Virus record (IMG/VR): IMGVR_UViG_3300042465_006264
Origin: an uncultured virus (IMG/VR IMGVR_UViG_3300042465_006264)
Lineage: Duplodnaviria; Heunggongvirae; Uroviricota; Caudoviricetes
Length of the DNA stretch: 64,000 nt
Strand: one strand, 5' to 3'
Part shown: piece by piece, positions 34,197 through 62,796 of the stretch
How the letters are laid out: every line of letters starts with the position of its first letter
How positions within the stretch are numbered: position 1 is the stretch's first letter
The notes under the pieces: generated by a model
Databases searched by the model: none
The model's input: the letters and a program-made list of their open reading frames with translations, nothing else
Told to the model about the DNA's origin: nothing
Translations under genes and position numbers: made by a program

Positions 34197-36569
34197 ATGA
34201 ACTTCAAAGATCTACTAAATTTATTGGAACAAAAGCGTTCTACAGCCGATTCTTTCCGTACTACTGGTGAAGCCATGGAAAAGGATAAGATAAAGTCTTC
34301 TTCTGCCACCGATAAGCAAAAAGATGCAGAAAGAAAGCGCAAAGAGCGTGCTAGACAAATTCCAAGAGAGCGTAGGTCAAAAGACCAACTCATTAAAGAA
34401 GTAATCGCAGTAAAAACACCATCTGGAAGAGTTCAACTTATCTTCAAGGATTCATTTGATAAGAGTAAGCATCAAAAAATTAATAAAAATGAAAGTATGA
34501 CTATGGAAGAAGCCCGTGCATTGACGGGTGATCCAAAGTTTGAACAAACAGGTGCATCAAAACTTTTGTTTGGAAATGTAAGAGAAAAAGAATCCAAGAA
34601 AACCGATAAAGGTAAAATTTCTGGAAAAGAAACAGATAAAAAGGTAACACAGTCACAAGATTCTGAATCCGAGGGGGCTGAGGGAAAACCTCAGCAAAAA
34701 GAAGCAAAGAAATTATCTAAACAAGATATCTTTGAGTTGATGACTCAGATGACTCCTGAGCAATTAAATCAAATTCCATTTGAAATGCGTCAAGAGTATT
34801 TCAAAATGGTAAGAAATCCACCGACAAACAGTAGTTTTGATTCTATGACCTTTGAGGCATTAGCCAATAAGTTTGGAATCAATCCACTATCTACAGCATC
34901 TTATAATCAACAAGTATTGAATGCATTGATATTTTTGGCCAAGATAAAGGCTGGCGCTGGAGAACAAGAACTTGAATCTTATACAGCAATTGCTCCAAAT
35001 GCATTAGATTTCACTAAAAACGCCTTTGAACAAGCCAAAAAAATTCTTTCACAAATTGGTGAAGCGTGCATTCAAAATCTTGTTGCAAGCGTTGAAAGTG
35101 GTTCAAAGACCATATTTGCGGAAGGTAACGTGGATATGGAATGTGGGAACTATAAATTCAATATATCTGCTGGTGGTGAGTTTTCCCTAACCACAGATAA
35201 ATTTGATCAAAGCAGTAAGTCTTTTAGAGGATTAATTAAAAATTCTTTGGCTACAGCTTTGTCCACCACAAATTTAGAAAAAGATCCAAAATTTTCTAAG
35301 TTTGCTCAAACAATATCTACGGTTGGATCAAAGTTTTCAACTATGTTGCTTTCTAAAGAAGCAATATCAGCCATTCAAAATAACCCGCAATTGGCTTCTC
35401 AGTTAGAAAATGTAAGTCTAACAGATAGTGAAGGAAGAGAAATCGGTAAACTATTTGATGAAAATGGAAAAGTAAATAAATTGGCATCATTAGATGGTTA
35501 TCAACAAGAGATAACAAAATCTGCTCCTTCGTTATTTAAAAATGCCCAAAATAAAATTTCTGAGTTTAGTGATGTATTCGTGAAAAATATTTTAAAAACA
35601 TATTATCGTGGTGATATGTTGAAGAAGCCAGAAGAGTCACCAACACACTTAGTTACACAAAATGGAATATTTCCAATGAGTGACGAATATTTTGATGAAA
35701 TTGCAAAATCAGCATCTGTCTCTGTTAAATCATCTTCTACAATCACATCAAAAGATAATATTAAACAAAGGCAAGATAGTCAATCAGAGATAACTAGAAG
35801 ATTTGCAACTGTTGTAGAACAAAAACAAGAGTTAGATTTAAATTCTTTATTCGTATCAAAAGACAATATAAATCCAGTTCAAATTGCTATGGACTATATT
35901 GCTAATAATATGGATTTTGATATAAATGTAAGTTTGATACCAGGATTTAAAACATCTGATCTAAACACTATACAATACAATTATGTAAGAATCAATGGTA
36001 AAACAATAAAAATACCAGTTGAAAAAACAGATACACTAAAAACATTTGTAAATGAAAATGCAGTTTTGTTTATAAATTATCTCTTAACAGAATCTCTTAC
36101 AAATAATTTTATTCTTTCTTCATTATTGAATTCAAAGTTATTAACAGATGCTGAAGCTGCTGCACTAGTACAACCTGGGATATTAACTGAAGACAATGGC
36201 ACTTTAAAAAATATTTTTCATCAAGTTTCTTCCCGTGCCATTGCCTTTCCAGAAATGTTGATGGCAGTTTTAAATCAAAGAGAAAAACAATTACAAGAAG
36301 CAAAGAAAAGAAATTATGCCATGGAATATAGAAATTATCATGGCAAACCAAAACAAAGAAAAGAGCGTGCCAAAAGAACTAAAGCGCGTGAGCAAATGAT
36401 AAAAAAGGGCCGTGTTAAAAAAGGTGATGGGAAAGACATAGATCATAAAAAAGCCTTAAGACATGGTGGTTCTAATGGCATAAATAATTTACGAGTTCGC
36501 AATAAATCGGAAAATAGATCAGACAATGGCCACTCAAAAGGCGAGAAACAAGATAAGGATTGGAAGTAA
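34197..36569 (+). CDS. Large late protein with CTS-like N-terminus and C-terminal HNH module
   Basis: MNFKDLLNLLE; RNYAMEY...DGKDIDHKK..GGSN..NLRV..SENR. Confidence 0.7.
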   Translation: MNFKDLLNLLEQKRSTADSFRTTGEAMEKDKIKSSSATDKQKDAERKRKERARQIPRERRSKDQLIKEVIAVKTPSGRVQLIFKDSFDKSKHQKINKNESMTMEEARALTGDPKFEQTGASKLLFGNVREKESKKTDKGKISGKETDKKVTQSQDSESEGAEGKPQQKEAKKLSKQDIFELMTQMTPEQLNQIPFEMRQEYFKMVRNPPTNSSFDSMTFEALANKFGINPLSTASYNQQVLNALIFLAKIKAGAGEQELESYTAIAPNALDFTKNAFEQAKKILSQIGEACIQNLVASVESGSKTIFAEGNVDMECGNYKFNISAGGEFSLTTDKFDQSSKSFRGLIKNSLATALSTTNLEKDPKFSKFAQTISTVGSKFSTMLLSKEAISAIQNNPQLASQLENVSLTDSEGREIGKLFDENGKVNKLASLDGYQQEITKSAPSLFKNAQNKISEFSDVFVKNILKTYYRGDMLKKPEESPTHLVTQNGIFPMSDEYFDEIAKSASVSVKSSSTITSKDNIKQRQDSQSEITRRFATVVEQKQELDLNSLFVSKDNINPVQIAMDYIANNMDFDINVSLIPGFKTSDLNTIQYNYVRINGKTIKIPVEKTDTLKTFVNENAVLFINYLLTESLTNNFILSSLLNSKLLTDAEAAALVQPGILTEDNGTLKNIFHQVSSRAIAFPEMLMAVLNQREKQLQEAKKRNYAMEYRNYHGKPKQRKERAKRTKAREQMIKKGRVKKGDGKDIDHKKALRHGGSNGINNLRVRNKSENRSDNGHSKGEKQDKDWK

Positions 36570-37720
36570 TGAACCGCAAGACAAAATTACTAGTTGAAAA
36601 AGTCTTTGAACGCTCCGGTTTAGGTAAGTGGTTCAATAAGGAATCTGCTGGTGGTGGCCCCGGCTGGGATCGTTATAATACCAAGGGAGAGCGTGTTGGT
36701 AAGTGTGGTGATGCAGATGAGGGAGATGCCTACTCCGCTTGTCTAAGCCGTCAGAAGGCCGATAAACTAGGAAAGGGTGGCATTGCATCATTTGTTCGTC
36801 GCAAGAGATCTGCTCAAAAGAAAGCAGGCCGTGGTAAAAAGGGATCTATAAAAGGAAAAGGAAAAAAGCCAGTATTTGTAAAGACTGGTGTTACTGATAT
36901 AAAGGAAACATATGACACCTTTATCGTTGAAAGCCATTCAAATGTTTTTCAAATGAATTTTACTCCAATAGAAGCATGGGAACTACTTCCATGTGATCTT
37001 ATAATTAATGAATCTGGAGAAGTATTTGATATCGATTATATAGAAGAGTCTAATGATAATTTACTAGTTGTAATGACAAATGAAGACGGAGAATTCATTA
37101 CTGAAAACTTTTCTAAAGATACTGTTATGGGATTTTTAGATAATTTAGAAGAAGCAGCATTCAATGAATTTGGTGATAAAATCGAAATATATGAATCTGA
37201 AGGTAAAAAAGTTAAACTCAACAAGATAATGCGCGGTGATGTTAAGAAGTATAAAGTTTATGTAAAAAATGATAAGGGCAATGTTGTTAAGGTAAACTTC
37301 GGTGATCCCAACATGGAAATCAAGCGGGATGACCCAGCACGCAGAAAGAACTTCCGTGCCCGTCATAACTGTGATAACCCTGGTCCTCGTTGGAAAGCAA
37401 GATATTGGGCTTGCAAAACATGGAGTGCCACGCCGGTTAGTTCTATGTTAAAAGAGGAACTAGAGTGCTTGGAAGAAGGAAAGAAAAATAAAGCTAAAGA
37501 TCCAAAAAAATGGAGTTCCTGTATCGCACAAGCAAAACAAAAATTTGATGTTTATCCAAGTGCTTATGCCAATGCATGGGCTGCTAAATGCTATAAGAGT
37601 AAGGGTGGTAAATGGAAAGCAGTGTCTGAAAGCATTGCCGAAGAAATTTACAACAGCCTTAAAGATAAAAAATACGATCCAGATTTGTTTAATTTAATAA
37701 AACAAAGAAAATTTAATTGA
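36569..37720 (+). CDS. Modular late (probably virion-internal) protein with several small basic phage domains
   Basis: GLGKWF..KCG; VNFGDPNM..RRKNFRARHNC..ARYWAC; KFDVYPSAYAN..YKSKGG, separated by LxE-rich linkers. Confidence 0.7.
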   Translation: MNRKTKLLVEKVFERSGLGKWFNKESAGGGPGWDRYNTKGERVGKCGDADEGDAYSACLSRQKADKLGKGGIASFVRRKRSAQKKAGRGKKGSIKGKGKKPVFVKTGVTDIKETYDTFIVESHSNVFQMNFTPIEAWELLPCDLIINESGEVFDIDYIEESNDNLLVVMTNEDGEFITENFSKDTVMGFLDNLEEAAFNEFGDKIEIYESEGKKVKLNKIMRGDVKKYKVYVKNDKGNVVKVNFGDPNMEIKRDDPARRKNFRARHNCDNPGPRWKARYWACKTWSATPVSSMLKEELECLEEGKKNKAKDPKKWSSCIAQAKQKFDVYPSAYANAWAAKCYKSKGGKWKAVSESIAEEIYNSLKDKKYDPDLFNLIKQRKFN

Positions 37721-37739
37721 TCTAAATAAAAGAGAAGCC

Positions 37740-38273
37740 ATGAAATTCAAACAATTACTTAAAAAAATCGAACCAATAAATGAAAATTCAGGTGAGCAAA
37801 CCTTTGGTGGTGGTTTATTCATCGGTGATCCACAAGCACCAAGAATGCCAAGTCCCTTAACAGATAAGGGCACTTTTAATCTTAAACTTCCACGATCAAT
37901 TGATGCAATCAATGCACTTCTTTTTGGATTAAGTCAGAGAGATTATATTGATCCAGATAGCATCTTATCAACAGTAAAAGAAAAATTAAATCACTTTGGT
38001 TTAGATTTTGAATATAAGTCTTCTCTACAAGACGGCGAAAATTCATATAAATTATATCAATACGGTAGTCCTTACATTGGAGTATATGGTCAAAATCCAT
38101 ATCAAGATGTAAATAAAACTGGTTTTAGCCAAGGTGATGGCATATCTGAAAAGATGGGTCATGGATTAAAACTATTAGCAACTGTAATAAAGCAACCTAA
38201 TTCTCTTCGTAAAGTTCAAATGGTAATTGTGCCAGATATGGGTTCTGATGAAAATTGTGGTTGTATGCACTGA
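37740..38273 (+). CDS. Late hypothetical protein with CTS-like N-terminus
   Basis: CTAAATA upstream; MKFKQLLKKIEPINE. Confidence 0.6.
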   Translation: MKFKQLLKKIEPINENSGEQTFGGGLFIGDPQAPRMPSPLTDKGTFNLKLPRSIDAINALLFGLSQRDYIDPDSILSTVKEKLNHFGLDFEYKSSLQDGENSYKLYQYGSPYIGVYGQNPYQDVNKTGFSQGDGISEKMGHGLKLLATVIKQPNSLRKVQMVIVPDMGSDENCGCMH

Positions 38274-38280
38274 AAAAAAT

Positions 38281-38676
38281 ATGGAGAAAGATTCTTTAAC
38301 TGAGATTAATTTTATTAATTTCTGTCAAAAGAATTATTTTAATTCTCATTGTTCTGGGAAAACAGAATTTATTGATGATTTAAAACGTGTAAAATACGTT
38401 AAAAGATTAATTCAAAAAATTCACAAATATAAAACTATAAAATCCATAAGAGAACGATTGATATTAAATCATATCATCATTTTAAAAAATGTTTTTGGTG
38501 AAGAAAATTCAGCGAGAATACTTTTTTTTAAGTTAGAGCCAAAATTGCATTCTTATCTAAAATCTTTTTTAGTATTTTTAGAATATAAAATTACTAATAT
38601 ACCAGAAGCACAATATCATAAAATTAATACAGATCCCCGTATTGATAAAAAATTAGTTGGTTCAAAAACTAAATAA
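38281..38676 (+). CDS. Conserved T4-like phage hypothetical protein
   Basis: EFIDDLKRVKY..RERLILNHIIILKNVFG..LKSFLVFL. Confidence 0.75.
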   Translation: MEKDSLTEINFINFCQKNYFNSHCSGKTEFIDDLKRVKYVKRLIQKIHKYKTIKSIRERLILNHIIILKNVFGEENSARILFFKLEPKLHSYLKSFLVFLEYKITNIPEAQYHKINTDPRIDKKLVGSKTK

Positions 38677-38681
38677 TTTAG

Positions 38682-40424
38682 ATGAACCATATTCAGTATA
38701 TACCTTCATTCTATTTTTATAAGTTTGCAAATGCTATAAGTGCTCCTTATACTGCATTGAGTGCATACAGTAATGGTTTAATTGATGAAAGTGGAAATAT
38801 AATTTCAAATGAAGGTTCTTTAGATGACTTTGAGTATTTTGTAATAAAGTTAAAAAAAATCTTTGAAGATCTTCCACCAGGATTAACAAAAAGTAGACTC
38901 ACCAATGTTTCTTCTATAATGCAATTATTTTCAGAAGAAATTGAAAAAATTGGAATAACACAAGAACAATTAATATGTCTTATTGAAGCACATGTAATAT
39001 TAAACAGTGATAATACTGTAAGTTTTATAGAGTTGCTTGAAGATATTGGTACTGGTGCTATGTCAACTGGTTCGAATCCTGGAGAGTTGGGCACACCAGC
39101 GGAGGCTCCAGAGGCAAATAAAGGAAATGTATCTGGTTATGATCCTCGTTTAGGTGAAATACTTACTAGAAGTCAACCGGTTAACATGTTCGCCAATGTT
39201 GAAATGTTTAGTGTTCCATCTCAAGAATTTAAAGCATTTAAACAATCAAAGACATGGAGACATTTGCCAGATAGTCCAACAAAAAGATATCTTCAGCGTT
39301 TCCAAAGAAGAAACAAAGAAGGTAAAATGGCAGTTCGTGATGAATCAAGTGGTGAAATTTTCTTTGTACCGTACAAAGAAAAAAGTTTTATGGAAGAGTT
39401 TAATTTAGAAGGATTATCTATTTTGAGTGAACAAAGAGATTTTACAGAACCATTCCGAGCTGCTTTGGATGCTCTAAGGAGAGGTAATGAAACCGATAAT
39501 GATGGGAAGGTCACTAGAGGTGAATCAGGTGAAAGATTTGCTCAAATTGTTGCAAATATTTCCAATCTTAGTAATGCAATAAAACACGCAGGGATTCAAT
39601 CTGATGTTGTAGATAAATCTATTGAAATAGCACAAAAACAAGCAGACAAACCAGTTGCCAAACACGGAACAGATGCATATCTTTGGACTCCCGATGGAGA
39701 TTTTCAAGAAGTTGATGCAAAACAAGTTGACGCAGATCGTGGAAGAAGAATTTATCCCGGTGATGAACCACATGAATTAATTGCTGGATTGCCTGAATAT
39801 CAAGATTTAATGAAAGGGTTGCGATCTGGCGCACCAATTGAAGCGTTGAAGGGTTTAAATCGAAGGTTCAGAGAACAAACAAAACAAATTGCACCCGGTG
39901 TACGCACAATAAGCGACCCTTCAAAATTGTCTCCACAACAATCAGCCAATCAAACAATATTAACAAAATTTGTTGCTGGAACACCTACAATGCCTCAAGC
40001 ATTTATAAGAACACCAGGGAAAAAAACTCCAAATTATTGGGGTACCGGAACGGTTCCTCTTGTTCCAAAAGAGGTTCTTTCAGCAGCAAGTGGTGAATCT
40101 AGAGCAACTTTTAATACGAGAGTATTTCAAAGAAAAATTAAAGATGGAAAACAAATGCCACCGGAAAGTGAAATCTTTGTAAGAGGTGGAAATCCTTTTA
40201 GTAGAGGTGCTATGGAAAGAATGAGACAATTGAGTGGCTTAAAACCGGGAGAACCAATACGAAATTGGAGTGCAAGTTTTCAAGATGTGAATCGTTATGG
40301 TAAATCTAGAGGGCAAGAAATTTATGATTTAAGAATCGGTGAGCAAGATTGGAATGTAATCAAACCACATCTTAATGCGGATGTCGCTGCCGAGTATGAA
40401 AAAATTTTACGTGATATTGGATAA
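38682..40424 (+). CDS. Late modular protein; conserved N-terminal domain plus possible PD-(D/E)XK-like C-terminal domain
   Basis: AYSNGLIDESGN N-terminal motif; TDAYL...QEVDAK after an LSE site. Confidence 0.55.
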   Translation: MNHIQYIPSFYFYKFANAISAPYTALSAYSNGLIDESGNIISNEGSLDDFEYFVIKLKKIFEDLPPGLTKSRLTNVSSIMQLFSEEIEKIGITQEQLICLIEAHVILNSDNTVSFIELLEDIGTGAMSTGSNPGELGTPAEAPEANKGNVSGYDPRLGEILTRSQPVNMFANVEMFSVPSQEFKAFKQSKTWRHLPDSPTKRYLQRFQRRNKEGKMAVRDESSGEIFFVPYKEKSFMEEFNLEGLSILSEQRDFTEPFRAALDALRRGNETDNDGKVTRGESGERFAQIVANISNLSNAIKHAGIQSDVVDKSIEIAQKQADKPVAKHGTDAYLWTPDGDFQEVDAKQVDADRGRRIYPGDEPHELIAGLPEYQDLMKGLRSGAPIEALKGLNRRFREQTKQIAPGVRTISDPSKLSPQQSANQTILTKFVAGTPTMPQAFIRTPGKKTPNYWGTGTVPLVPKEVLSAASGESRATFNTRVFQRKIKDGKQMPPESEIFVRGGNPFSRGAMERMRQLSGLKPGEPIRNWSASFQDVNRYGKSRGQEIYDLRIGEQDWNVIKPHLNADVAAEYEKILRDIG

Positions 40425-40446: not shown

Positions 40447-40447
40447 A

Positions 40448-44991: not shown

Positions 44992-46398
44992 ATGAACTAC
45001 CTAACAAATTACTACAAGAACTTATCAGAACAATTACAAGAAAAATTAAATCACTTAGAAAAATATGTAAATTTTTTATCTGAAGATTTGGCATCCGGAA
45101 CTATAGAGCAGGGTGCTGGACCAGGTGCTGGGGTTGGAACAGGGACCACAACAAATCAAAATAACAACTCTAATGATTTAAATGCTTTGCTTCAAGCATG
45201 GGGTTCTTCAAACCCTCAATTTGATTTGAACCGAGACGGTGTAGTTGATGGAGATGATCTTGGATTGTTCTTGGCAAATATGCTTAATAGAGGACAGTCA
45301 TCACCAACTACCATGGCTAGCACTGCATTACCTGGAACACCAGAGACTGAAACTTTTGGTGGTGGTCAAAAAGCAGGTAGAGCCGCTAAAGCATTGGATC
45401 AACCAGGTCTCGCAAGTGGTAAAGTAGGAAGAATGTTTGATGCTGGGGCAGGTGTACCAGTTGGTGAAAAAAAAAATCAAACACCCCAATTAGGACCACC
45501 CAACATCCCGTCTTCAACAGGAACAAAGCAATTCAAAAATAAATTTTCTCCTAATGTATCACAAGTAAATTTAGCAAGTCCATCTCAAACCACATCTCAA
45601 ATAAGTGGTGTTCCAAGAAATGCTCCTGGTTGGAACAACACTTCAATAAATGGAACGTCACTTTATGATGCAGATGGAAATGGAGTTATTGATGGTGATG
45701 ACCTAGCAATGATATTGCAAGGTATACCTTCACCACAGCAAACCCCGCCAAGATTGAATCCAAAAACTCCGTATTCACCAGAAATAAGTCCTTCAACCGC
45801 TAAATTTTCTCCAGCAATACAATCTCCAACACCCGGAAACATTGTCAATGCTAAAGCAAAGGTAATGGCCTCTAATAAAAATAGAGGTGTTTCCCAAGGA
45901 GATGTTGAGGGGCCTAACAGAATGCCTCCAACTATGCGACCAAAAACACAAAGAGGTTTGAGCACTAGAGTTTCTTTGAGTCCGGAACAATATACAAATA
46001 TGGATATTTCACAGGGACGGGGTACTCCCTCAAATAACAATTTTGTTCAACAAGGGGGATCTTCTATTACAGGAGATATTAATGGTGACGGAATAGTTGA
46101 CAGCAATGATTTGGGTGTGCTTTTAGCAAATTGGGGTAGTGGGACACCAGGACCATGGGATATTGACGGGAACGGAATAGTTGACAGTAATGACATGGGT
46201 ATACTATTGGCTAGCTGGGGACAAGGAGCACCTCCACCACCTCCACCACCACCACCACCTCCACCACCACCACCACCAACGGAACCGGCAACAGACACTG
46301 AAACTACAACACAACAAAATACACCTTATTGGATGAGTGGAAGAACAACTGATATCGATACCCTATTCAGGGCTGGTCAACGAAGAAGAAAAAAATAA
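44992..46398 (+). CDS. Dockerin-like (EF-hand) repeat protein with MNYLTNYY leader
   Basis: DLNRDGVVDGDDLGLFLA, DADGNGVIDGDDLAMIL, GDINGDGIVDSNDLGVLLANWG, DIDGNGIVDSNDMGILLASWG; poly-Pro. Confidence 0.8.
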   Translation: MNYLTNYYKNLSEQLQEKLNHLEKYVNFLSEDLASGTIEQGAGPGAGVGTGTTTNQNNNSNDLNALLQAWGSSNPQFDLNRDGVVDGDDLGLFLANMLNRGQSSPTTMASTALPGTPETETFGGGQKAGRAAKALDQPGLASGKVGRMFDAGAGVPVGEKKNQTPQLGPPNIPSSTGTKQFKNKFSPNVSQVNLASPSQTTSQISGVPRNAPGWNNTSINGTSLYDADGNGVIDGDDLAMILQGIPSPQQTPPRLNPKTPYSPEISPSTAKFSPAIQSPTPGNIVNAKAKVMASNKNRGVSQGDVEGPNRMPPTMRPKTQRGLSTRVSLSPEQYTNMDISQGRGTPSNNNFVQQGGSSITGDINGDGIVDSNDLGVLLANWGSGTPGPWDIDGNGIVDSNDMGILLASWGQGAPPPPPPPPPPPPPPPPTEPATDTETTTQQNTPYWMSGRTTDIDTLFRAGQRRRKK

Positions 46399-47722: not shown

Positions 47723-48331
47723 ATGTACGATATCAATATCCCACATTTTTATTGTTTGTTAAGAAAAGAGCATCTTTACCAAAACAAAGATCATTTCTTT
47801 GAATATGAAAAGGTAGCAGTCTTTGGAGCACAATCCAGTGCTGGAAAGGCTTTGTTGTTTACAGTAATGTTGGATAACGGAACAATAAGAAGTAGAGTTC
47901 CAATTCATATGTTATGCAGTAAAGAAGGCCCATCAGATCCATTAGATTACTTGCAACTTTGGGATTGTTTTTCTGAAAATGTTACGGTCACAACTTATAG
48001 TTTTTTAAAGGGTGCCAGAGCAAAAGTTATATTTAAAGATAAAAGTCACTCTTGGGGAAATTATAAAATGACATTTGATTGGTATGATAACCCATACAGC
48101 AACGAACCATCTCAATACAAATGTCTTCACATGATTGAACTGGATAATGGAAATTATGCTCTACAACCAAACAATAGAATATTTTGGAAAGAAATGTCTT
48201 TTACGACCAAGCCATTTCCAGAAAAACCAGATTATAAAGTTGACACACAGGAGTATAGATGCGAGAATAAAAGCGATAGATGGATTATAAGTGATGATGA
48301 CAATTATTATTACGATATAAATCCTACATAA
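47723..48331 (+). CDS. Conserved phage hypothetical protein
   Basis: NIPHFYC..RKEHL, LQLWDCFS, LDNGNYALQPNNRI; true start lies after tRNA-Tyr. Confidence 0.75.
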   Translation: MYDINIPHFYCLLRKEHLYQNKDHFFEYEKVAVFGAQSSAGKALLFTVMLDNGTIRSRVPIHMLCSKEGPSDPLDYLQLWDCFSENVTVTTYSFLKGARAKVIFKDKSHSWGNYKMTFDWYDNPYSNEPSQYKCLHMIELDNGNYALQPNNRIFWKEMSFTTKPFPEKPDYKVDTQEYRCENKSDRWIISDDDNYYYDINPT

Positions 48332-48335
48332 TAAT

Positions 48336-48530
48336 GGTATTGTTGATATCGGATTGAAATGCGTATGACACGGGAGTTCGAATCTCCCCGGATCCACTTT
48401 ACGGGTCCGACAGGCATCGATCAGCGTAGAGTAATGAAGAAGGAGATACCCGACACGGGTAACAAGTGTCGTAAATAAACAGTTGCAACAACAAAAGCCG
48501 CACCAATGCGGATGGCTGCTTAAAGCAGTG
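48336..48530 (+). ncRNA. ssrA: Circularly permuted (two-piece-type) tmRNA; 5' boundary approximate
   Basis: T-arm and 3' acceptor strand (48372-48396) precede 5' strand GGGTCCG (48403-48409); G3:U70 pair; pk1; tag ORF 48485-48523 ending MAA-TAA. Confidence 0.88.
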
Positions 48531-48536
48531 GGGTTT

Positions 48537-48572
48537 CCCGGTTTTCCCGCGACTGAAAAACCGGGTTTTTTA
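48537..48572 (+). terminator. Intrinsic terminator after tmRNA
   Basis: CCCGGTTTT...AAAACCGGG followed by T6. Confidence 0.85.
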
Positions 48573-48589
48573 TTGCCATAAATATCTTT

Positions 48590-49102
48590 ATGCAGCACCC
48601 CAACGAGGGATTTATTAGAAGTTTTTTAGGCAAAGATAAAGCCTACAAAGAACAACTCTTGGCTGAGGAAAAAAAGCAAAGAGTAAATGAATATTTTGCT
48701 CGTAAGAAAAACAAGCAAAATGTTCTTAGAGAAGAAAATAAAAAATCCATAACAAAAACTATTGATGTTGTTTATTCAAATTCAAAAAAACAACCATTAC
48801 TAGAACAAAAAAACACACAAGATTGGCAAACTGTTCAAACACAACATGGTATTTTTTACTACAATGAAAAAACAAAAGAATGGATGAATAATTTTGGAGT
48901 TATAAAGCCATCTCTTAATGATTTCATTAGTATTTTTGATTATAATATAATTAATGATAACTTAAACAAAAAACAAAAGCCACCAGCAACTCCATCCAAT
49001 ATTCAAACTATAACCTCTATCAATGGAATTACTTTGAGTTGGCAAGATAACTCAGATAATGAAATTGAATTCCAAACTTATGGAAGAATAGAATTGATAT
49101 AA
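48590..49102 (+). CDS. Late protein ending in the N-terminal half of an FN3 domain
   Basis: ATAAATA upstream; PPATPSNIQT...ITLSWQDNSDNEIEF. Confidence 0.65.
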   Translation: MQHPNEGFIRSFLGKDKAYKEQLLAEEKKQRVNEYFARKKNKQNVLREENKKSITKTIDVVYSNSKKQPLLEQKNTQDWQTVQTQHGIFYYNEKTKEWMNNFGVIKPSLNDFISIFDYNIINDNLNKKQKPPATPSNIQTITSINGITLSWQDNSDNEIEFQTYGRIELI

Positions 49103-50656: not shown

Positions 50657-51310
50657 ATGGCCCTTAATCCTTATTTCAATAACTATGCAGGAGAACAAAA
50701 TTTAGTTGAAGATATAACTATTGAAGTTATAAAAGCAACTGGAACAAACTGTGTTTATGTTCCAAGAGAATATCTAAACATTGATAAAGTTTTTGGTGAG
50801 GATCCTGGAACTAAGTTTATTAATTCTTACCCCATTGAAATGTATTTGCTTACATATAAAGGATTTGAGGGGACTGATGTAATCAGTCAGTTTGGTTTAG
50901 AAATAAGAGACAAAGTTGTTTTGGTATTAGCACGAAGAAGATTTAAAGAAGAAGTTACAAATAACAATTCTAGCATAACAAGACCAAGAGAAGGTGATTT
51001 GATCTATTTTCCTTTGGCAAATTCTTTATTTGAAATAAATTTTGTGGAACATGAAAATCCATTTTATCCACTTGGAAAATTGTATTCTTACACAATAACT
51101 GCAGAACTCTTCACTTACAGTTATGAGAAGATGAATACTAAAAACACATCAATTGATTCTGTTTATAACACGACTAAAGGAGCATGTGCTGCTAATATAA
51201 TACCTATGAACAATATGTTGGGAACTACTGCAGGAATAAATGATGTTCTTGAAAGTGAATCTTCTCTATATTCATTCAATGAAAATGATCCAAATGAAGC
51301 CTGCCCTTAA
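50657..51310 (+). CDS. gp14: Neck protein
   Basis: MALNPYF..EQNLVED, VYVPRE, YPIEMY, RPREGDLIYFP, FEINFVEHE. Confidence 0.93.
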   Translation: MALNPYFNNYAGEQNLVEDITIEVIKATGTNCVYVPREYLNIDKVFGEDPGTKFINSYPIEMYLLTYKGFEGTDVISQFGLEIRDKVVLVLARRRFKEEVTNNNSSITRPREGDLIYFPLANSLFEINFVEHENPFYPLGKLYSYTITAELFTYSYEKMNTKNTSIDSVYNTTKGACAANIIPMNNMLGTTAGINDVLESESSLYSFNENDPNEACP

Positions 51311-51354: not shown

Positions 51355-51744
51355 ATGCAAAACAATGACCATCACTACAAGTTAAGATGTGCAAAATTAA
51401 ATGAAATGAAGAAAAAGTTAATAGCAGATTTAAATTTGATTAATGAGCAATTGGCAGCACAATCAATGCCACAAGGTGTTCAAACTCAACCAAATGCTGT
51501 TAATAAAGGAAAACAAGATCCAAAAAAATCAATTGAGGCACCAGTTAAAATGCAACATGGTTTTGCTCATACAGGAAATGCTGCAGAAGCACAAGAAGAT
51601 ATTTTAAAAAGTTATTCCGATAACCCCGAAACAGAAGATCAAGAAATGGCAAAAGATGCTTCTTGGCAATCTGTAAATTCTGCAGTTGGAAATTATATGA
51701 CACAACAAGTTGCTAAACTTGCAAAATCACAATACATGGCCTAA
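51355..51744 (+). CDS. Late hypothetical protein
   Basis: TATAAATA upstream; LINE site. Confidence 0.6.
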   Translation: MQNNDHHYKLRCAKLNEMKKKLIADLNLINEQLAAQSMPQGVQTQPNAVNKGKQDPKKSIEAPVKMQHGFAHTGNAAEAQEDILKSYSDNPETEDQEMAKDASWQSVNSAVGNYMTQQVAKLAKSQYMA

Positions 51745-52466
51745 TGAAAACTTTTGGTCAATTTATCACAGAGTCATCAGATCTGACTTTAAGATACCAT
51801 AATGAATTAAATTCAAAGTTGTGGTATGGTGATAAATTAAAACCAGAAGTACGTGAAAAATTAATAGATATAGGAAATGCTTGGGCAGAATTTTCTAAGA
51901 TTCCCCAAGAAGCAGTCAAAGATATGATTATTGTTGGTGGAAATGCAAATTTTAATTATACGGATTACTCGGATATAGATTTACATCTTTTGGTAGATAA
52001 AGAAGAAATGCCTGATTGTCCAGATTTGTTGGATGACTTTTTAAAAGATAAAAAACAATTGTGGTCATTATCACATGATATTTCGATATATGGGCACGAT
52101 GTAGAATTATATGCACAAGATATAAATGATGAATTTCCAGCAAGTCAAGGAGTTTATAGTTTAACTCAAAACAACTGGATGGTTCCTCCAACAAAACAAG
52201 AAGTAAATTTTGATGATCCCAATCTTATAAGAAAAATTAACGATTATACAAATAAGATTAATGATTTGATAGATTCAAATGCAGAGGATGAATCTTTTAA
52301 AAAATTGAAGAAAAAGTTTGGTGATATGAGAAAAGCAGGTATTAAAAAGGCTGGTGAATTTTCTCAAGAAAACTTAATTTTTAAAGAACTTAGAAATAAG
52401 GGATATTTGGATAAAATGAATCAATATATCAAATCCAAAGAAGATGAAAAATTAAGTTTAAAATAA
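51744..52466 (+). CDS. Pol-beta-superfamily nucleotidyltransferase-like protein with CTS
   Basis: MKTFGQFITE; GGNANFNY..SDIDLH; VELY; GEFSQENLIFKELR. Confidence 0.8.
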   Translation: MKTFGQFITESSDLTLRYHNELNSKLWYGDKLKPEVREKLIDIGNAWAEFSKIPQEAVKDMIIVGGNANFNYTDYSDIDLHLLVDKEEMPDCPDLLDDFLKDKKQLWSLSHDISIYGHDVELYAQDINDEFPASQGVYSLTQNNWMVPPTKQEVNFDDPNLIRKINDYTNKINDLIDSNAEDESFKKLKKKFGDMRKAGIKKAGEFSQENLIFKELRNKGYLDKMNQYIKSKEDEKLSLK

Positions 52467-55080: not shown

Positions 55081-55593
55081 ATGAACTACCTTACAAACTA
55101 TTATAAAAATTTATCGGAAGATTTATCAAGAAGAGTTACTTTGCTTGAAAATTATTTAACAGAAATGCAAGCACAAATTGCTTCCGGAAATCCTGAAATC
55201 GCAGTTTCAGAAACCGATATCGAAGCAGCTGTTGCTCCACCAACATCCAAAACTCCATCCCATGTTCCACCAAGACCCACTGGACCTTCCACACCAACAA
55301 ATCCGGGCCCAGCACCAAAAAGAAGAGATGGAGAAAGTGATAAACAATATCAAGATAGATACAAACAGTGGCTTAAGGAAACAAAGAGATGGGAAATATA
55401 TCAAAAATTTCGTGAGGAAATTGAAAGAGGTGGTAACAATGTTTTTACTTGGCCTACAAGAATTCCTAACGAAAGAGTGGGTGATGAGATGCGCGCAATT
55501 CCTCCAGCTAAAACTGGTGATATATACATCACAGAAAATGGGCAGGTATACAGAGTAGTAGGAAATAATCCAGGAATTTGGGTTTTAGTTTGA
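55081..55593 (+). CDS. Late protein with MNYLTNYY leader
   Basis: CTAAATA upstream; first 13 residues identical to those of 44992. Confidence 0.7.
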   Translation: MNYLTNYYKNLSEDLSRRVTLLENYLTEMQAQIASGNPEIAVSETDIEAAVAPPTSKTPSHVPPRPTGPSTPTNPGPAPKRRDGESDKQYQDRYKQWLKETKRWEIYQKFREEIERGGNNVFTWPTRIPNERVGDEMRAIPPAKTGDIYITENGQVYRVVGNNPGIWVLV

Positions 55594-55964
55594 AAAAATT
55601 TTTAGAATATCTTAACGAGTCGGATTACAGAAAGACTTTGCTAAAAAAAGCAGAGTCTTCCGCTTCAAAGTTGGAAAATGAAGCCAAAAATAGAATATTA
55701 AATATAATTCCACCCACAACCGAAGATGATATGGCTATTGTGGTTCCAGGTGTTTTACTTCAATCGGAAATAGATCAAGAAGGATATCCAACCGGAGAAA
55801 TAATTACAACAATCAATGATCCGGGTGTTATTGAACATTCTAAAAAAGTTCAAAAGAACATGGATGATTTACTTGGTGTTACAGAAAGAAATAAACAGCA
55901 AGATTCAAGAATTGAAAAATTTTTGAAACAAAATTTAAATAGAAACAATCAAGATAAACTTTGA
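55590..55964 (+). CDS. Late protein with CTS-like N-terminus
   Basis: TTG start overlapping the upstream TGA; (M)KKFLEYLNE. Confidence 0.6.
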   Translation: MKKFLEYLNESDYRKTLLKKAESSASKLENEAKNRILNIIPPTTEDDMAIVVPGVLLQSEIDQEGYPTGEIITTINDPGVIEHSKKVQKNMDDLLGVTERNKQQDSRIEKFLKQNLNRNNQDKL

Positions 55965-57477: not shown

Positions 57478-57485
57478 TGTATTAG

Positions 57486-57559: not shown

Positions 57560-57999
57560 CGCTTCCTTCTTGCAATTATAGCAGCAATTCCAAGCATTGC
57601 AAGAACTCCGGGTGCAGGAACATCAGGAGGCTCACAATCGCTTCCATTCAATTCGGTAGAAGCCTGCATACAAACGCTCTCAATGCGATCATGGGCAACA
57701 GGAATGAACATATCCTGATCCACGGTCTGAACGGTCATTACGAGCCTTCCACCGTTGAAGATCTTATGGACCCAAAATCCATCAAAAGATCCCATGAAGT
57801 ATTTATTTGCAGTTTCAGGATAATTTGAAACCGTATTATTTGAAATAGATTCCTTGATGGGCTCAGTGATCGTGAACTGAGTATCGAACACAAGTCTATC
57901 GGTGAAAGTGACTTCCTGATAAATTGCTCCCTGATACTCGGAGCGAGAGAAAGTCTGACCGTTTGAATTGTAGATTGTAGATGTAGGTACGATAGCCAT
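57550..57999 (-). CDS. Protein with PEP-CTERM-like (VPAPG) C-terminal sorting signal
   Basis: DVPAPGVLAMLGIAAIIARRKRGH: motif, TM, Arg cluster. Confidence 0.75.
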   Translation of the reverse strand: MAIVPTSTIYNSNGQTFSRSEYQGAIYQEVTFTDRLVFDTQFTITEPIKESISNNTVSNYPETANKYFMGSFDGFWVHKIFNGGRLVMTVQTVDQDMFIPVAHDRIESVCMQASTELNGSDCEPPDVPAPGVLAMLGIAAIIARRKRGH

Positions 58000-58000
58000 T

Positions 58001-58285
58001 TTATTTTCTATTCTTGTAAGCGAGTTTAATATCTTCGATAATTTTATCTGCAATTACTTGCCAACCATCCACAGCAGTCAAATCTTCGCATGCTTCAACA
58101 GTCACAGCAAAATTAATTTCAATGTAGTTGCTGAACATCTTTTCACGAACCCACCAAACATAAGGTGTGTTTCTAACTTTATGAATTTCTCCCTTGAGAT
58201 TGTAATACTCAACCTCATCAAGACATTTCATTTGTCTCTTGTATTTTGGTTCGGGAGCAGTGTAAAATTCTTCATCGTTGCACAT
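58001..58285 (-). CDS. Hypothetical protein
   Basis: Packed minus-strand ORF. Confidence 0.55.
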   Translation of the reverse strand: MCNDEEFYTAPEPKYKRQMKCLDEVEYYNLKGEIHKVRNTPYVWWVREKMFSNYIEINFAVTVEACEDLTAVDGWQVIADKIIEDIKLAYKNRK

Positions 58286-58608
58286 TAAATTTGTCCTTTA
58301 CGAAACAACTCATTATTTGAATCGGCTTCCATCTTTGCATGGTCATCATCACCGACAAAGAATTCCGCCTTGAAGCAATCCCAACCACGCCGATTCGCAA
58401 CTTGATTTGCCGTGCATGGTGGTGATGGTGAAGGACGATACGCTTCATCCCTGCACACCTCTCTCCTTGCCTCGTCGCGCTCACGCTCCAACTCACAGAT
58501 CCTTTCATAGCCGTGAGAAATTATATTGATAACTTCGGGACTGAGACACCAGTTCTTGGAAAGTAGACGCAGTTCGCTTGCAACATCTTCAGGCTTGATC
58601 TTCTTCAT
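58285..58608 (-). CDS. Hypothetical protein
   Basis: ERDEARREVC..ANRRGWDCFK. Confidence 0.6.
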   Translation of the reverse strand: MKKIKPEDVASELRLLSKNWCLSPEVINIISHGYERICELERERDEARREVCRDEAYRPSPSPPCTANQVANRRGWDCFKAEFFVGDDDHAKMEADSNNELFRKGQI

Positions 58609-59033
58609 GGCATAATATTTCTGTTGTAGGGGATGTATTCATCCTTTGCACACTCAGAGCAGAGAGTCTTCAGCCAGAAGCCACCCGTAGACACATGGAC
58701 AACTCCGCGCTTTGCACACACTTCACAGACATTGGCACTCTGCTCCTCTGCGTAGTTGATCCAATCCCACATGGTTTCATCGACTTCACCACTCACATAA
58801 AATCGAAGAGTACCAAACTTCTCCTTTATCTGATCTATGTGGAATGGAAACTCACAGTCAATAAACTTTTCAGGATTGAGAGTGAGATGATCTTCAAGTC
58901 TTGCAAGAAGAACATGAATAATCTTGTTCCAACCGGGCTGGATCTCAACTCCATACATACAGCACCCCCTGTGCTTGAAGCACAGAGGATACTGCTTCTC
59001 AAGATCTTCAAGGTTTAGGTGTTTATCTTCCAT
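58605..59033 (-). CDS. Conserved phage protein with C-terminal Zn ribbon
   Basis: GW..., QIKEKFGTLRFY, CEVC..WLKTLC. Confidence 0.75.
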   Translation of the reverse strand: MEDKHLNLEDLEKQYPLCFKHRGCCMYGVEIQPGWNKIIHVLLARLEDHLTLNPEKFIDCEFPFHIDQIKEKFGTLRFYVSGEVDETMWDWINYAEEQSANVCEVCAKRGVVHVSTGGFWLKTLCSECAKDEYIPYNRNIMP

Positions 59034-59227
59034 TACTTGCCTGCGGTGATCGTGATTTTGCCAGCCATCATTACGGCTGACACTACCATTACTATAGCAC
59101 CGGACATGACCAATGCAACCATTGCAATGTCAAATGCAGCACCAATAACACCCTTATAGGGAAAGACTTTGAGAGTCATGGGCTCGGGCTTCTTCGTAAT
59201 TTTCTTAGTAGCAATCTTCTTAGTCAT
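59033..59227 (-). CDS. Small membrane protein
   Basis: AAGGA RBS; basic N-terminus and long hydrophobic segment. Confidence 0.55.
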   Translation of the reverse strand: MTKKIATKKITKKPEPMTLKVFPYKGVIGAAFDIAMVALVMSGAIVMVVSAVMMAGKITITAGK

Positions 59228-59339
59228 AACGATTCCTTTTGTCAATAAAATGAATTACAATGTCAGATATTAACATCACAACCACCGGCAAAAAGGTAAA
59301 AAACGTAAACCACCAGATTTGAGGTGGATGATGATTCAT
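59220..59339 (-). CDS. Small single-TM protein (39 aa)
   Basis: Leaderless after TTGACA-N16-TATAGT (59346-59373). Confidence 0.55.
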   Translation of the reverse strand: MNHHPPQIWWFTFFTFLPVVVMLISDIVIHFIDKRNRYD

Positions 59340-59386
59340 GTCAACACTATAGCATGGGAAAGCACTATGTCAAGATAAATACTTTT

Positions 59387-60100
59387 ATGAAACGATTTAA
59401 ACAATTTTTGATTGAGAGGCTTGAGGAAGATGATTGGATTCCAGATACCCCAACAAAAACAGACACGACCACAAAAGTACCACTTCGTGGAAATTTTCCA
59501 GAAGGTGAAGAAGGTCAAAAAGAATATATTCAAGCGTTAAAAGATTCGGCTCCAAAATTAAAACAAGAGGCTGAAGAATTTTCAAGAAATGCAGAAACTT
59601 CTTCAAATATTTTATCAAATGTAGAAAGTGGTTTGCGAACTGCTGATCTAGTAACAGACGTTGCTCTTTCTGCTGCTAGCGTAACACCACCTGGAGCAAT
59701 TTTAAATGCTGCTGTAAAAGGTGTTAGAGCAGGAATTGATGCAAAGGAAGGTGATTATGGGAGTGCAGCAATTAATGCATTGGATGCTGTTACTCCGGGT
59801 GTTGGAAAAGTTATATCTGGTGCAGGAAAAGCAACGAAGTTAGCATCAAATGCAACTAGACTAGTTGTAGACCCAGTAAGTTCTGTTGGAAAAACAACAA
59901 TGGGTTTAATTGGAAAAGCAACAACAAAATCATCTCCGCTATTAGCACAAGCCACAGAAAAAGGACTTAAAAAAGTAGGCGAAGAAAGTATTGAGATGGG
60001 AATTGACTCATCATTAGAATATGGTCAAAAGGTTGCAGCACGACAACAAAGACAAACAGAAAATGAAAGATCTGCCGTAAGAAACACAACAAGACTATGA
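59387..60100 (+). CDS. CTS-tagged protein with pre-toxin-TG-like module
   Basis: MKRFKQFLIE; AGIDAKEGDYGSAAINALDAVTPGVGK. Confidence 0.7.
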   Translation: MKRFKQFLIERLEEDDWIPDTPTKTDTTTKVPLRGNFPEGEEGQKEYIQALKDSAPKLKQEAEEFSRNAETSSNILSNVESGLRTADLVTDVALSAASVTPPGAILNAAVKGVRAGIDAKEGDYGSAAINALDAVTPGVGKVISGAGKATKLASNATRLVVDPVSSVGKTTMGLIGKATTKSSPLLAQATEKGLKKVGEESIEMGIDSSLEYGQKVAARQQRQTENERSAVRNTTRL

Positions 60101-60134
60101 TAAAACATATTCTATTTACAGTAGAAAGACTAAA

Positions 60135-61646
60135 ATGAAAAGATTTAAGAATTTTTTAATAGAAAAAGAAGATTTGGGTCAAACAACACAATATGGGGGA
60201 AAAGCTCCATCTGGTGCATTACGTCGTAGAGTTGTTGATCCTGCTGTTGATTTTGCCAAAGAGGTTGGTAGTGCATTAAAAGATAATCCCGTAGAATTTG
60301 GTAAGCAATACGCACAATCACTTCTTACAGATCCAGAGACTTACCACTCAGGTTTGGCTGCAGCAGGAATGATTCCCGGTGTGGGTGAGATTGCCGATAT
60401 GGCTGATGCAGCCATATATGCTGGTCAAGGAGATACAGAAGGAACCAAGATGGCTCTCGCATCAATGGTTCCATTTACAGGAATGATTCCGGGTATGGCA
60501 AGATTAGGAAAATCTGCAAAAGCATTGAAAGAACCTTTGAATCGTGCAGAGCAAGCGGTCAAAGATGCAAAAGCAACATGGAGAGAAACAAAAGCGGCTG
60601 AACATGCAGATACAATGAATGATCCTTTTTTCTCTCAAAGATTTTTAAAATCAGATATTCCAGCAACAGACGATTATATAACACTTGCTAACAAATTTGG
60701 TTTTGAAATTCCAAGAGTAGATCAACCAACTGCTTCTTTGACTGGAATGGAAATACTTCAAGGTGTATATGGTAAAGATGCAAGAAAAAATATTGAACTT
60801 GCAAAAAGAGCACAAGAAAGAGCAACTAAACAAAGTACCCCTAGTTTTTTTGATCAAATGGGACTCAATTTGACACAGTTCCCCGAAATTAGACCACGGA
60901 GATCAACTAAAATTGAAATAGAAAATCCTTCAGAATTCCCATTGCCTGATTATTCCGATTCTGCATTGGCCAAGAAATTTAATGTTTATGTTGGAACACA
61001 TCGGCCCGAGGGCATAGAAGGGACAGTTTCACCAATTTCACCTTATGGATATGCAGAAGTTCATCTATCCAACCCAAATTCTTTATCATTCAATGTAACA
61101 AATCCAAAAAATTTAGATTTTGGTGAAACAATGACACACGAACTTACCCACGATTTGGGTTTTGCAAATCCAAAAACTGCATGGCCTGCGGTTCGTGCAT
61201 CATCTACTAGTGGTAACTATGCAGACGCATGGAATGCATTGGTAAAAGATAGAGTACCACGAAGATACACGGAAATATTAGATGATCCAAATTTTACTAG
61301 TAAATTGCAACCACACCCAAATAATGCACTGATCAGAGATTATTTTTCAAACACTGAACTGCCCGGACAAGTTGCTCAAGCAAAAGCATGGATGCAGGGC
61401 AAAGGTCTTCCAAATGTAAATGCAAATATGTCTCAAGAAGAAGCAACAAGAATAAGAGACATGGTGTTGGACAAATACGGAAAAGGAATGTTCCCTGAAT
61501 TCAAGGGTGGAGCCGGTGGAAGGGCAGTACCAGCAATAATTGATATAATTGGAAGTCCACAAGGAAAGAAATTATTTGAACTCATTGCCAAGAGAAACAC
61601 TGGTTCAGAAGTCAACAATAGAGTCAATCAGATTGGATATGCCTAA
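60135..61646 (+). CDS. CTS-tagged protein with pre-toxin-TG-like module and HExxH metalloprotease-like domain
   Basis: MKRFKNFLIE; AGMIPGVGEIADMADAAIYAGQGD..MALASMVPFTG; THELTH. Confidence 0.75.
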   Translation: MKRFKNFLIEKEDLGQTTQYGGKAPSGALRRRVVDPAVDFAKEVGSALKDNPVEFGKQYAQSLLTDPETYHSGLAAAGMIPGVGEIADMADAAIYAGQGDTEGTKMALASMVPFTGMIPGMARLGKSAKALKEPLNRAEQAVKDAKATWRETKAAEHADTMNDPFFSQRFLKSDIPATDDYITLANKFGFEIPRVDQPTASLTGMEILQGVYGKDARKNIELAKRAQERATKQSTPSFFDQMGLNLTQFPEIRPRRSTKIEIENPSEFPLPDYSDSALAKKFNVYVGTHRPEGIEGTVSPISPYGYAEVHLSNPNSLSFNVTNPKNLDFGETMTHELTHDLGFANPKTAWPAVRASSTSGNYADAWNALVKDRVPRRYTEILDDPNFTSKLQPHPNNALIRDYFSNTELPGQVAQAKAWMQGKGLPNVNANMSQEEATRIRDMVLDKYGKGMFPEFKGGAGGRAVPAIIDIIGSPQGKKLFELIAKRNTGSEVNNRVNQIGYA

Positions 61647-61647
61647 A

Positions 61648-61947
61648 ATGACAAAATTTATTCCATATATTTTTGCACTTTTGCTGATGTTACCCAAACA
61701 GGCACCAGCACAAATTTTAGTGATTCCTGTAGAAGATTTGTTGATGACGATTCCCGACTTCAACAATGCCCCAAATTATAATTTTTGGAATGGAATGAAC
61801 GGACAACAACCACCAATGGGTAACTCATCTCGACAGCCCAGACTCAATAATGAAGAAGAATTATTAAATTTGGCATGGGACATCTTTCCACAGGCTGAGA
61901 CAATAAAAATTTGGAATAAGAAATTAATAATTAAATTAAAAGATTAA
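61648..61947 (+). CDS. Exported small protein resembling a secretin N-domain
   Basis: Signal peptide ending APA; VEDLLMTIPDFNNAP...EELLNL...TIKIWNKKLII. Confidence 0.55.
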   Translation: MTKFIPYIFALLLMLPKQAPAQILVIPVEDLLMTIPDFNNAPNYNFWNGMNGQQPPMGNSSRQPRLNNEEELLNLAWDIFPQAETIKIWNKKLIIKLKD

Positions 61948-61948
61948 T

Positions 61949-62671
61949 ATGAAAAGATTTAAAAAATTTCTAATTGAAGCAGATACCACGGCACTCTCTC
62001 AAGGGCCAGAAGCTCAGAATGTACCGAGTGCACCATATGACCCTATAGAAGTTCCCGGACCACATTGGTATCAGACACCATCACCAAACCCTAACAACCC
62101 ACCACCAAATGAAAATGCACCTCCAGACCCAATTGATTGGGAGGATATAGATGACAGATTCAGAGATGCCGAAGATGACATAAGACAACTTCTCAGAACT
62201 TTAAGTGGTCTTTCTTGGGAACAAATTGTTAAATTTTTACAAAAACATTTTGGTGTAAACATACCAAATGATGCAGATTTATTTTTCTGGTTAAAAAACA
62301 GAATAGAAGAACAAATGCAGGATTGGTTTGAAAGAACATACCCAAATTCTACCAATGAACAATTCCTAACCTATCAAGAACTTCTTCAGCAATGGTTTCA
62401 AAGATTTCAATTTGATATTTTTGACGAATGGAGAGATCCAACCCAAAATCCTTCACCATACCCATATCCTCCCGGTGGACACCCACCAATAGATATTGGT
62501 AATGAAGAAACTTGGCCAATGCCTTGGACAACACCCGGTCAGCGTGGAACTCCATACCAATCCCCAGATGTACCAGTAGAGCCATATTATCCCAGAGGTC
62601 CAAATCGTTATTATCCAAGACCACCATCACCATACCCATATAATCCATATCCCGGAACTTATCAGGCATAA
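61949..62671 (+). CDS. CTS-tagged Pro/Tyr-rich protein
   Basis: MKRFKKFLIE; helical core flanked by PYP-rich tails. Confidence 0.7.
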   Translation: MKRFKKFLIEADTTALSQGPEAQNVPSAPYDPIEVPGPHWYQTPSPNPNNPPPNENAPPDPIDWEDIDDRFRDAEDDIRQLLRTLSGLSWEQIVKFLQKHFGVNIPNDADLFFWLKNRIEEQMQDWFERTYPNSTNEQFLTYQELLQQWFQRFQFDIFDEWRDPTQNPSPYPYPPGGHPPIDIGNEETWPMPWTTPGQRGTPYQSPDVPVEPYYPRGPNRYYPRPPSPYPYNPYPGTYQA

Positions 62672-62673
62672 AA

Positions 62674-62796
62674 ATGAAAAGATTCATACAATTTTTAGAA
62701 AATTATGATGTCTACCTTGATATGCCTATGGGGTTTAACAAAGAGGAAACCATAGAGTCAGAGGAAGAGGAAACTGAGGAAGAAGAGGAAGGGTAA
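62674..62796 (+). CDS. CTS-tagged acidic peptide (40 aa; not in ORF track)
   Basis: MKRFIQFLENYDVYLDMPMGFNKEETIESEEEETEEEEEG. Confidence 0.65.
   Translation: MKRFIQFLENYDVYLDMPMGFNKEETIESEEEETEEEEEG

Follow-up and report, generated by a model that had tools for sequence, protein, structure and literature searches.

The 64,000-nucleotide stretch of DNA analyzed here, called the window, comes from an uncultured virus of the Caudoviricetes (IMG/VR record IMGVR_UViG_3300042465_006264) and carries six genes whose products begin with a 10-residue leader of the pattern known from the capsid-targeting sequence (CTS) of phage T4, together with two more that begin with a coiled-coil leader ending in L/I-x-E. 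At loci that are polymorphic among related phages, cargo bodies have been gained, lost, and replaced behind these constant leaders. We consider it likely that a T4-type internal-protein system exists in this clade of uncultured lake phages; the core idea is already known from T4, and the present system is an enlarged version of it. The leader would direct proteins made late in infection into the prohead core, and a protease of the gp21 type would cut after L/I-x-E and leave the cargo in the head; such loading and trimming seem probable. Less surely, part of the cargo would be ejected with the DNA and act in the first minutes of infection through nucleotidyl transfer, proteolysis, or passage of the wall and membrane, and we lean slightly toward ejection and action on the host, at least for the enzyme cargo. 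Low-complexity cargo may serve as core filler. The promoter and leader stay put and the body is exchanged, probably via crossovers in the leader-coding DNA, and because promoter and leader are retained during the swaps, any captured open reading frame (ORF) would become packageable.

Leaders A and B and their virion relatives

The window holds genes typical of a T4-type phage, both for replication (clamp, clamp loaders, RegA, UvsX, helicase, and primase) and for the neck (a gp14-type gene at 50657), and its DNA polymerase shares ~40-42% identity with cyanophage gp43. All 24 of the listed sequencing runs that contain the phage DNA are lake-water metagenomes, and two of these runs may be its source. 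In the relative G003, genes for portal, protease, scaffold, and major capsid protein are present, and the last of these proteins has L-T-E ahead of its mature N-arm. A preliminary description of this DNA had proposed a family of eight N-termini resembling the T4 CTS. All eight lie on the + strand where they had been placed, and six of them (51744, 55590, 59387, 60135, 61949, and 62674) do form a family, here called leader A, while the two at 34197 and 37740 fail to score with it. The likeness to the CTS holds at residues 4, 7, 8, and 10, which define its function: residues 4 and 7 serve targeting, residues 8 and 10 serve processing, and gp21 cleaves after L/I-X-E, as described in PMC9026906. 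In the T4 record, ipII and ipIII start with MKTYQEFIAE and ipI with MKTFKEFT. All six strict genes of the window have an aromatic residue (F/Y) at positions 4 and 7, and 51744, 55590, 59387, 60135, and 61949 show F4, F/Y7, L/I8, and E10, which places L/I-x-E at positions 8-10. What is conserved is the protein sequence (F4, F7, L/I8, and E10); the leader DNAs within the window agree at only 17-26 of 30 bases.

A first profile, built from eight leaders that belong to internal proteins of T4 and to cyanophage proteins detected in virions, placed the six strict leaders at ranks 1-6 among the 88 ORFs of the window with scores of 12.0-18.6, the next best being 3.0, and the chance expectation at a score of ≥8, estimated from 16,351 internal windows, was 0.07 among 195 candidate starts. 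This test was not fully blind because five of the eight training leaders, all from S-CREM2 virion proteins, had been chosen by eye after the window tags were seen. In 12 replication, recombination, and neck genes of the window, the leader score never exceeded 5.6. A second profile had 19 training leaders, drawn from T4, the window, and IMG/VR loci and none of them from a cyanophage, and T4 ipI, which was outside its training set, ranks 4th among 281 T4 ORFs. A top-scoring CTS-like leader was also noticed on T4 gene 61.1 (record 18966-19130, L180), which is annotated as hypothetical and may be an unrecognized internal protein.

The tag also singles out virion proteins of cultured cyanophages. 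Under the second profile, the four best-scoring of the 212 S-CREM2 ORFs are ORF14 (kinase), ORF154 (cytidylyltransferase), ORF6 (SAM hydrolase), and ORF13, and all four belong to the virion proteome in Table 3 of PMC10665884 (hypergeometric, 0.003). A score of ≥8 was reached by 3 of 51 matched virion proteins versus none of the 161 other ORFs (Fisher, 0.013); the table has 52 rows, and ORF174 is missing from the ORF calls. The tag profile gave no score for any of the 24 structural proteins of S-CREM2. In S-SCSM1, three ORFs score ≥8, and ORF91 and ORF31 among them are labeled virion proteins, while the tagged kinase of S-CRM01 is present in virions according to PMC10665884. S-CREM2 ORF156, a 54% homolog of the 51744 product, is listed in the same virion table with 6 peptides (PMC10665884). 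As a separate observation, the "Cas9-like nuclease" of S-CREM2 (ORF12, L040), which was detected in virions, carries, after a short extension, a segment like the tag at residues 17-26.

The second leader, leader B, is a coiled-coil sequence of 28-31 residues common to 44992 and 55081 (MNYLTNYYKNLSE...L-x-E), and its exact DNA pattern occurs in 85 stretches in IMG/VR. L/I-x-E is found within residues 19-36 of 102 of the 103 leader-B proteins versus 276 of 1124 others, and the pattern by which they were selected covered residues 1-9 only. The hexamer TAAATA, which we take to be like the T4 late-promoter consensus, is informative solely at a distance of 11-17 nt upstream of a start; over the whole window it occurs at chance frequency (75 versus 75), and such overall frequency is no proof of late expression. 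It lies directly upstream of 74 of 101 leader-B genes, compared with 282 of 1107 others, and 94 of 101 leader-B genes belong to TAAATA operons, compared with 527 of 1107. In the window, one copy stands 11 nt upstream of 55081 and another, at 59376..59381 on the + strand, lies 11 nt before the start of 59387 and heads the tagged cluster. Since leader B has no T4 counterpart, its assigned role rests on the L/I-x-E end, the promoters, and its exchange with leader A described below. Among N-terminal clusters (n = 642), leaders B (65) and A (28) have by far the largest numbers of cargo families, with a third class at 12.

Exchange of cargo behind the leaders

The preliminary description had anticipated that cargo would vary behind a constant leader across related phages, and leader-bounded indels and swaps were indeed seen. 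The near-identical phage G002, in which most blocks are 90-98% identical to the window, lacks 59387, 61949, and 55590. At its first junction, the upstream DNA and the first leader bases of 59387 are fused to the body of 60135 so that the leader is a hybrid, and at the second, the DNA upstream of 61949 is joined to 62674 via 11 common leader bases. A joint from 59401 to 60150, a skip of 748 nt that equals the leader-to-leader distance, was found in contigs from two of four other runs, each time in one low-depth contig of 88% likeness. The homology of 55081 to G002 likewise stops 110 nt past the start. The same pattern is seen across relatives among genes that can be aligned with a relative in their upstream DNA, copies >99.7% identical and locus edges being excluded: at 26 of 36 leader-A starts versus 23 of 366 others, the alignment stops 15-40 bases past the start, and at 7 of 13 leader-B starts versus 15 of 366, it stops 60-115 bases past the start.

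In the loci examined, the distinct tagged proteins number 94 with leader A and 103 with leader B, and these 197 cargos fall into at least 112 families, of which 75 are singletons. In four of the 112 families, one of them that of the putative 60135 protease, leader B substitutes for leader A on the same cargo, so that the two leaders probably serve the same loading step. The median length of the tagged proteins is 208 aa. A size far beyond that of the T4 internal proteins had been put forward as a novelty, a claim we do not retain because T4 Alt, of ~680 aa, is likewise packaged and ejected. The nearest record, G001, spans the left portion of the window, and no further tagged gene was found there.

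Cargo proteins and neighboring genes

The best defined cargo is that of 51744..52466 (+ strand), a conserved protein of 240 aa in which leader A (aa 1-10) precedes what is predicted to be a nucleotidyltransferase (NTase) of the Pol-beta superfamily (phrog_36119). Its profile matches to NTP_transf_2 and GlnD NTase are weak, and a PDB sequence search with the NTase profile returned nothing relevant. The predicted structure has a pLDDT of 89, with low confidence for aa 1-11; the top Foldseek rows are CD-NTases, AAD(9), and MNT, none of which reaches E ≤1e-3, and a structural alignment to 2rff (VIA) gave Z 7.0 and an rmsd of 4.3 over 104 aligned residues. The catalytic GG/GS-x-DxD..D motif (G65, G66, D77, D79, D119, and E121) is invariant in 55 rows, and the tag residues F4 and E10 are ≥90% conserved among the 55 aligned homologs. 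The phage family is large (1494 matches) and has members in Cr30, Lak, and Maribacter phages too. F4 and E10 are retained even behind an N-terminal extension of 45 residues. This 45-aa domain (W.V.DS.G.K.LG.H...A..QL.AIEIS) precedes the tag in many NTase homologs (G004, G005, G007, and P0042-P0067) and also precedes another late protein (G003 105900).

In the tagged cluster, 60135..61646 (+ strand) encodes 503 aa, with leader A followed by a helical hairpin of the pre-toxin type (aa 63-147, nt 60321-60575) and an HExxH domain (H335-E336-H339, nt 61137-61151) with a distal E408. The HExxH motif and the distal E are invariant in 13 aligned homologs. There is a weak metalloprotease match (NF038122, E 0.012). 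No Pfam family matched, PT-TG included, and fold searches with a model of pLDDT 62 gave no match, the Atlas yielding none above 0.9; because the model is weak, the missing fold match is no evidence against a protease. Residues 63-147 draw most of the 728 profile matches. Among 83 matches scanned (of 148 new ids), ~19 carry RHS, VgrG, Hcp, PAAR, eCIS, Hint, or toxin domains, and in 11 of 12 bacterial proteins measured, the hairpin-like segment lies 10-62 residues ahead of a toxin or Hint domain. A hidden Markov model (HMM) of the bacterial segments recovers the hairpin of 59387 at E 0.012 and that of its L085 homolog at 7e-4; its detection of 60135 is circular because the segments had been chosen by 60135. 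In relatives, three homologs of 60135 (P0007, P0129, and L076:10823-12316) start with leader B and have no hairpin; the G004 copy of the putative protease starts with leader B. P0134 and P0135 combine tag and hairpin with an unrelated C terminus, while P0138, P0139, and L104 have Pro-rich sequence behind the hairpin, which argues against every hairpin protein being a toxin.

The remaining genes of the cluster are all on the + strand. The product of 59387..60100 joins leader A to Gly/Ala-rich cargo with the weak pre-toxin-type hairpin and constitutes the removable 748-nt cassette. That of 61949..62671, also a removable cassette, joins leader A to Pro-rich cargo (17%) with a helical core and has a distant homolog in G003, and 62674..62796 encodes 40 aa, a short leader-A variant with an acidic tail, whose first 16-23 aa are conserved in six relatives and whose tail is variable. 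Between the tagged genes, 61639..61947 encodes an untagged 102-aa protein with a signal-peptide-like start, which is kept in G002 and has one other homolog (L168). It lies behind 60135 both in the window and in G002 but does not stand beside the putative leader-B protease of G004, so that it is at most a candidate immunity gene. Past the cluster, at 62800-64000, a repetitive noncoding stretch is followed by GC-rich genes on the opposite strand (vWA/MoxR-like in G002), and this sharp compositional border recurs in G003 and G007.

Elsewhere on the + strand, 55590..55964 encodes an accessory protein with leader A, a TTG start, and 114 aa of cargo, and its one homolog locus uses TTG too. Leader B occupies aa 1-28 of the 55081..55593 product, ahead of variable cargo, and ~aa 1-31 (L-x-E end) of the 44992..46398 product, ahead of dockerin-like repeats (dockerin_GC NF041540, E 5e-12). 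We presume that the dockerin_GC family is typical of Planctomycetota, which might hint at the host of its carrier. A host search by a SpoU scan of genome contigs gave two short Bacteroidota-bin contigs at 53-58%, which is uninformative. In relatives, 11 of 104 cargo representatives have a Pfam match at E ≤1e-4, or about one in ten when counted by rows (9 clear proteins plus weak ones), and they include a methyltransferase, ART-PolyVal, LysM twice, GP88, dockerin, two DUFs, and a weak YxzE. The largest leader-A family (L070:4350-5024 and 19 relatives) appears by motif to be of the T4-lysozyme type, and Pfam, NCBIfam, and PHROG gave no match for it at the thresholds used.

The genes at 34197 and 37740, which had also been described as payloads of a plug-in kind, are excluded as such by synteny, conservation, and failing tag scores: both are conserved and syntenic in G003-G007 and are not cassettes. 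The first (34197..36569, + strand; phrog_4590) encodes a late protein of 790 aa with a loose leader (LLE-11), 47-55% identical over its length, that scores 0.5 under the second profile; its C-terminal HNH-like domain of 90 aa sits after an L-x-E site, and HNH clusters appear just at an Atlas score of 0.8, which is a lead. The second (37740..38273, + strand) encodes a late protein of 177 aa with a loose leader (INE-15), 58-71% identical, that ranks 51st of 88 under the first profile and reaches 10.3 under the second only with a one-residue shift.

Several further features were noticed. Conserved N-terminal modules with variable bodies also occur at 30780, 31072, and 41829 of the window and at L107:7730, L111:3539, L114:5821, L114:6200, and L104:5300. 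The module MDNKQDRQFYWEVK is found on proteins of 96-931 aa, YSWIHELN is conserved ahead of variable bodies, FNDHLNFTNNIYD fronts 12 cargo families and once stands immediately ahead of leader B, and MKQKNPILYSLLEYRY stands ahead of the same hairpin as in 60135. L/I-x-E lies in the first 32 residues of 11 of 13 hand-picked other late ORFs of unknown function, versus 13 of 43 controls. A basic repeat protein (36569-37720) shows weak similarity (E 2e-6) to the virion protein ORF29 of S-SCSM1. In the product of 38682-40424, aa 115-160 contain "D..G...GYDP" after L-L-E and resemble the mature N-arm of the G003 major capsid protein and S-CREM2 ORF160 (a virion protein); this protein may anchor to the shell from inside. 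A DUF7207 gene precedes both this gene and ORF160. ARAGORN predicts a permuted (two-piece) tmRNA at 48305-48614, amid several tRNA genes.

Alternative readings and comparison with known systems

Several observations weigh against an internal-protein system of the kind proposed. The leader of 62674 is one residue short, with F-L-E at 7-9 (E9) and no L/I-x-E, and in relatives, TAAATA operons show no clear enrichment for leader-A genes (40 of 74 versus 527 of 1107). Among the cyanophages, S-SCSM1 ORF30 has a strong tag (19.6) and carries no virion-protein label, S-CREM2 ORF156 has a degenerate leader without F4/F7 though it was detected in virions, and possible co-purification of such virion proteins is cautioned in both PMC10665884 and PMC9602691. 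The leader-B HMM matches only N-termini of this clade, with none in T4, the three cyanophages, Cr30, or the G003 head proteins, and leader B is absent from PHROGs as a family. The head genes are not part of the window and are known only from the relative G003. The breakpoint counts are not independent, as the 18 A-A pairs amount, in our reading, to nine slots, one of which has held three cargos. A leader identity of 17-26 of 30 bases is also short for homologous recombination, so that selection on rare events may account for part of the breakpoint pattern. Carried further, the leader would be a filter rather than a hot spot, with rearrangements occurring anywhere and survivors being those that keep promoter, frame, and tag. 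This explanation, which the junction with just 11 common bases would also suit, seems to us the less probable one, because G002 combines the two leaders in one at the 59387/60135 junction and the skip matches the leader-to-leader distance exactly. That the shared N-termini are an expression or recombination cassette only, consisting of late promoter, start region, and first codons, with no targeting role for the peptide, is very improbable. The junctions do fall in leader DNA, and gene shuffling by promoter cassettes is known in T4-type phages (PMC2839356), but the leader is conserved as protein over divergent DNA, its motif persists in the NTase behind the 45-aa domain, and it matches a T4 signal established by experiment and, in two cyanophages, selects virion proteins.

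A more substantial alternative accepts packaging and trimming and takes most of the tagged proteins as structural core or filler, which would give the prohead its shape, act as a buffer for the DNA, or make up a conduit for ejection and would be degraded or stay in the head. Many late proteins of the present phage have several L/I-x-E sites, as do T4 gp22, gp67, and gp68, which are cut to fragments, and T4 IPIII influences head assembly (both in PMC9026906). The Pro-rich 61949, acidic 62674, and Gly/Ala-rich 59387 products look suited to such a part, as does the non-enzymatic Pro-rich sequence behind the hairpin of three relatives, and Pfam gave no match for 93 of 104 cargo representatives. 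Against this reading stand the full NTase active site of 51744 and the invariant HExxH...E of 60135. The tagged proteins of relatives include a methyltransferase, an ART-PolyVal ADP-ribosyltransferase, LysM proteins, and, by motif reading, a lysozyme-like family, rapid gain and loss of cargo suits host-facing selection, and T4 Ip1-3 are all anti-restriction proteins (PMC12373910). We regard filler as a possible but less favored account for most of the proteins.

If the proposed internal-protein system is real, a motif of ten residues predicts head cargo among the unknown genes of T4-like environmental phages and accounts for the enzymes that recur in cyanophage virion proteomes, and the more than 100 cargo families become a screenable pool of early anti-defense or takeover proteins. 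Through the second tag and the swap joints, it would become testable how T4-type heads choose their internal proteins and how new cargo is captured.

Bacterial polymorphic toxins offer one comparison. In their RHS, VgrG, Hcp, PAAR, and eCIS carriers, a Gly/Ala hairpin precedes the toxin or Hint domain, as it precedes HExxH in 60135, and phage MuF toxins are a further comparable toxin-carrying system. Relatives of the present phage have the hairpin before other C termini, as in polymorphic toxins, although those C termini have no toxin annotation, and the capsid tag takes the place of the delivery domain; the leader-B versions of the putative protease, unlike polymorphic toxins, lack the hairpin. 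The capsid might thus be a delivery device with two-address loading, leader DNA as recombination joint, and interchangeable effectors that cross the membrane as polymorphic toxins do, the 60135 metalloprotease being an example, but we think it unlikely that all of this holds, and toxin-like membrane delivery by itself is similarly doubtful.

In the cyanophages S-CREM2, S-SCSM1, and S-CRM01 (PMC10665884 and PMC9602691), the kinase, cytidylyltransferase/NMNAT, and SAM hydrolase start with the same tag, and the ORF156/51744 pair is homologous cargo common to cyanophage and present phage; the cargo sets are otherwise unlike, and leader B is absent from the cyanophages. The available text of PMC10665884 does not mention an N-terminal tag on these virion proteins ("N-terminal" gives 0 matches). 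A literature search for the leader motifs or for a survey of T4-like leaders, which covered few subscription papers, turned up the T4 sequence alone.

The closest known system is that of T4 IPI-III and Alt and the ip loci of T-even phages, where the same 10-residue leader, with aromatic residues at 4/7 and L/I-x-E at 8-10, precedes unrelated bodies in clustered variable loci (Mullaney and Black 1996 and Repoila 1994, as cited in PMC9026906, PMC3012670, PMC12373910, and PMC2839356). The leader alone is common to the T-even proteins, of which Ip1-3 block GmrSD variants (PMC12373910 and PMC3012670) and >30 variants are known (PMC2839356), and the CTS has already been proposed as an evolutionary route by which T4-like phages package varied proteins (PMC9026906). 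Ejection into the host, with anti-defense or takeover activity there, is known for the T4 Ips and Alt. T-even IP elements rest on early promoters (PMC2839356), whereas the cluster heads of the present phage carry the late-type TAAATA. Beyond T4, the present clade has a second, coiled-coil class of leader that is exchangeable with the first, and its cargo, with all its families in the loci examined, extends to predicted enzymes and a toxin-like architecture.

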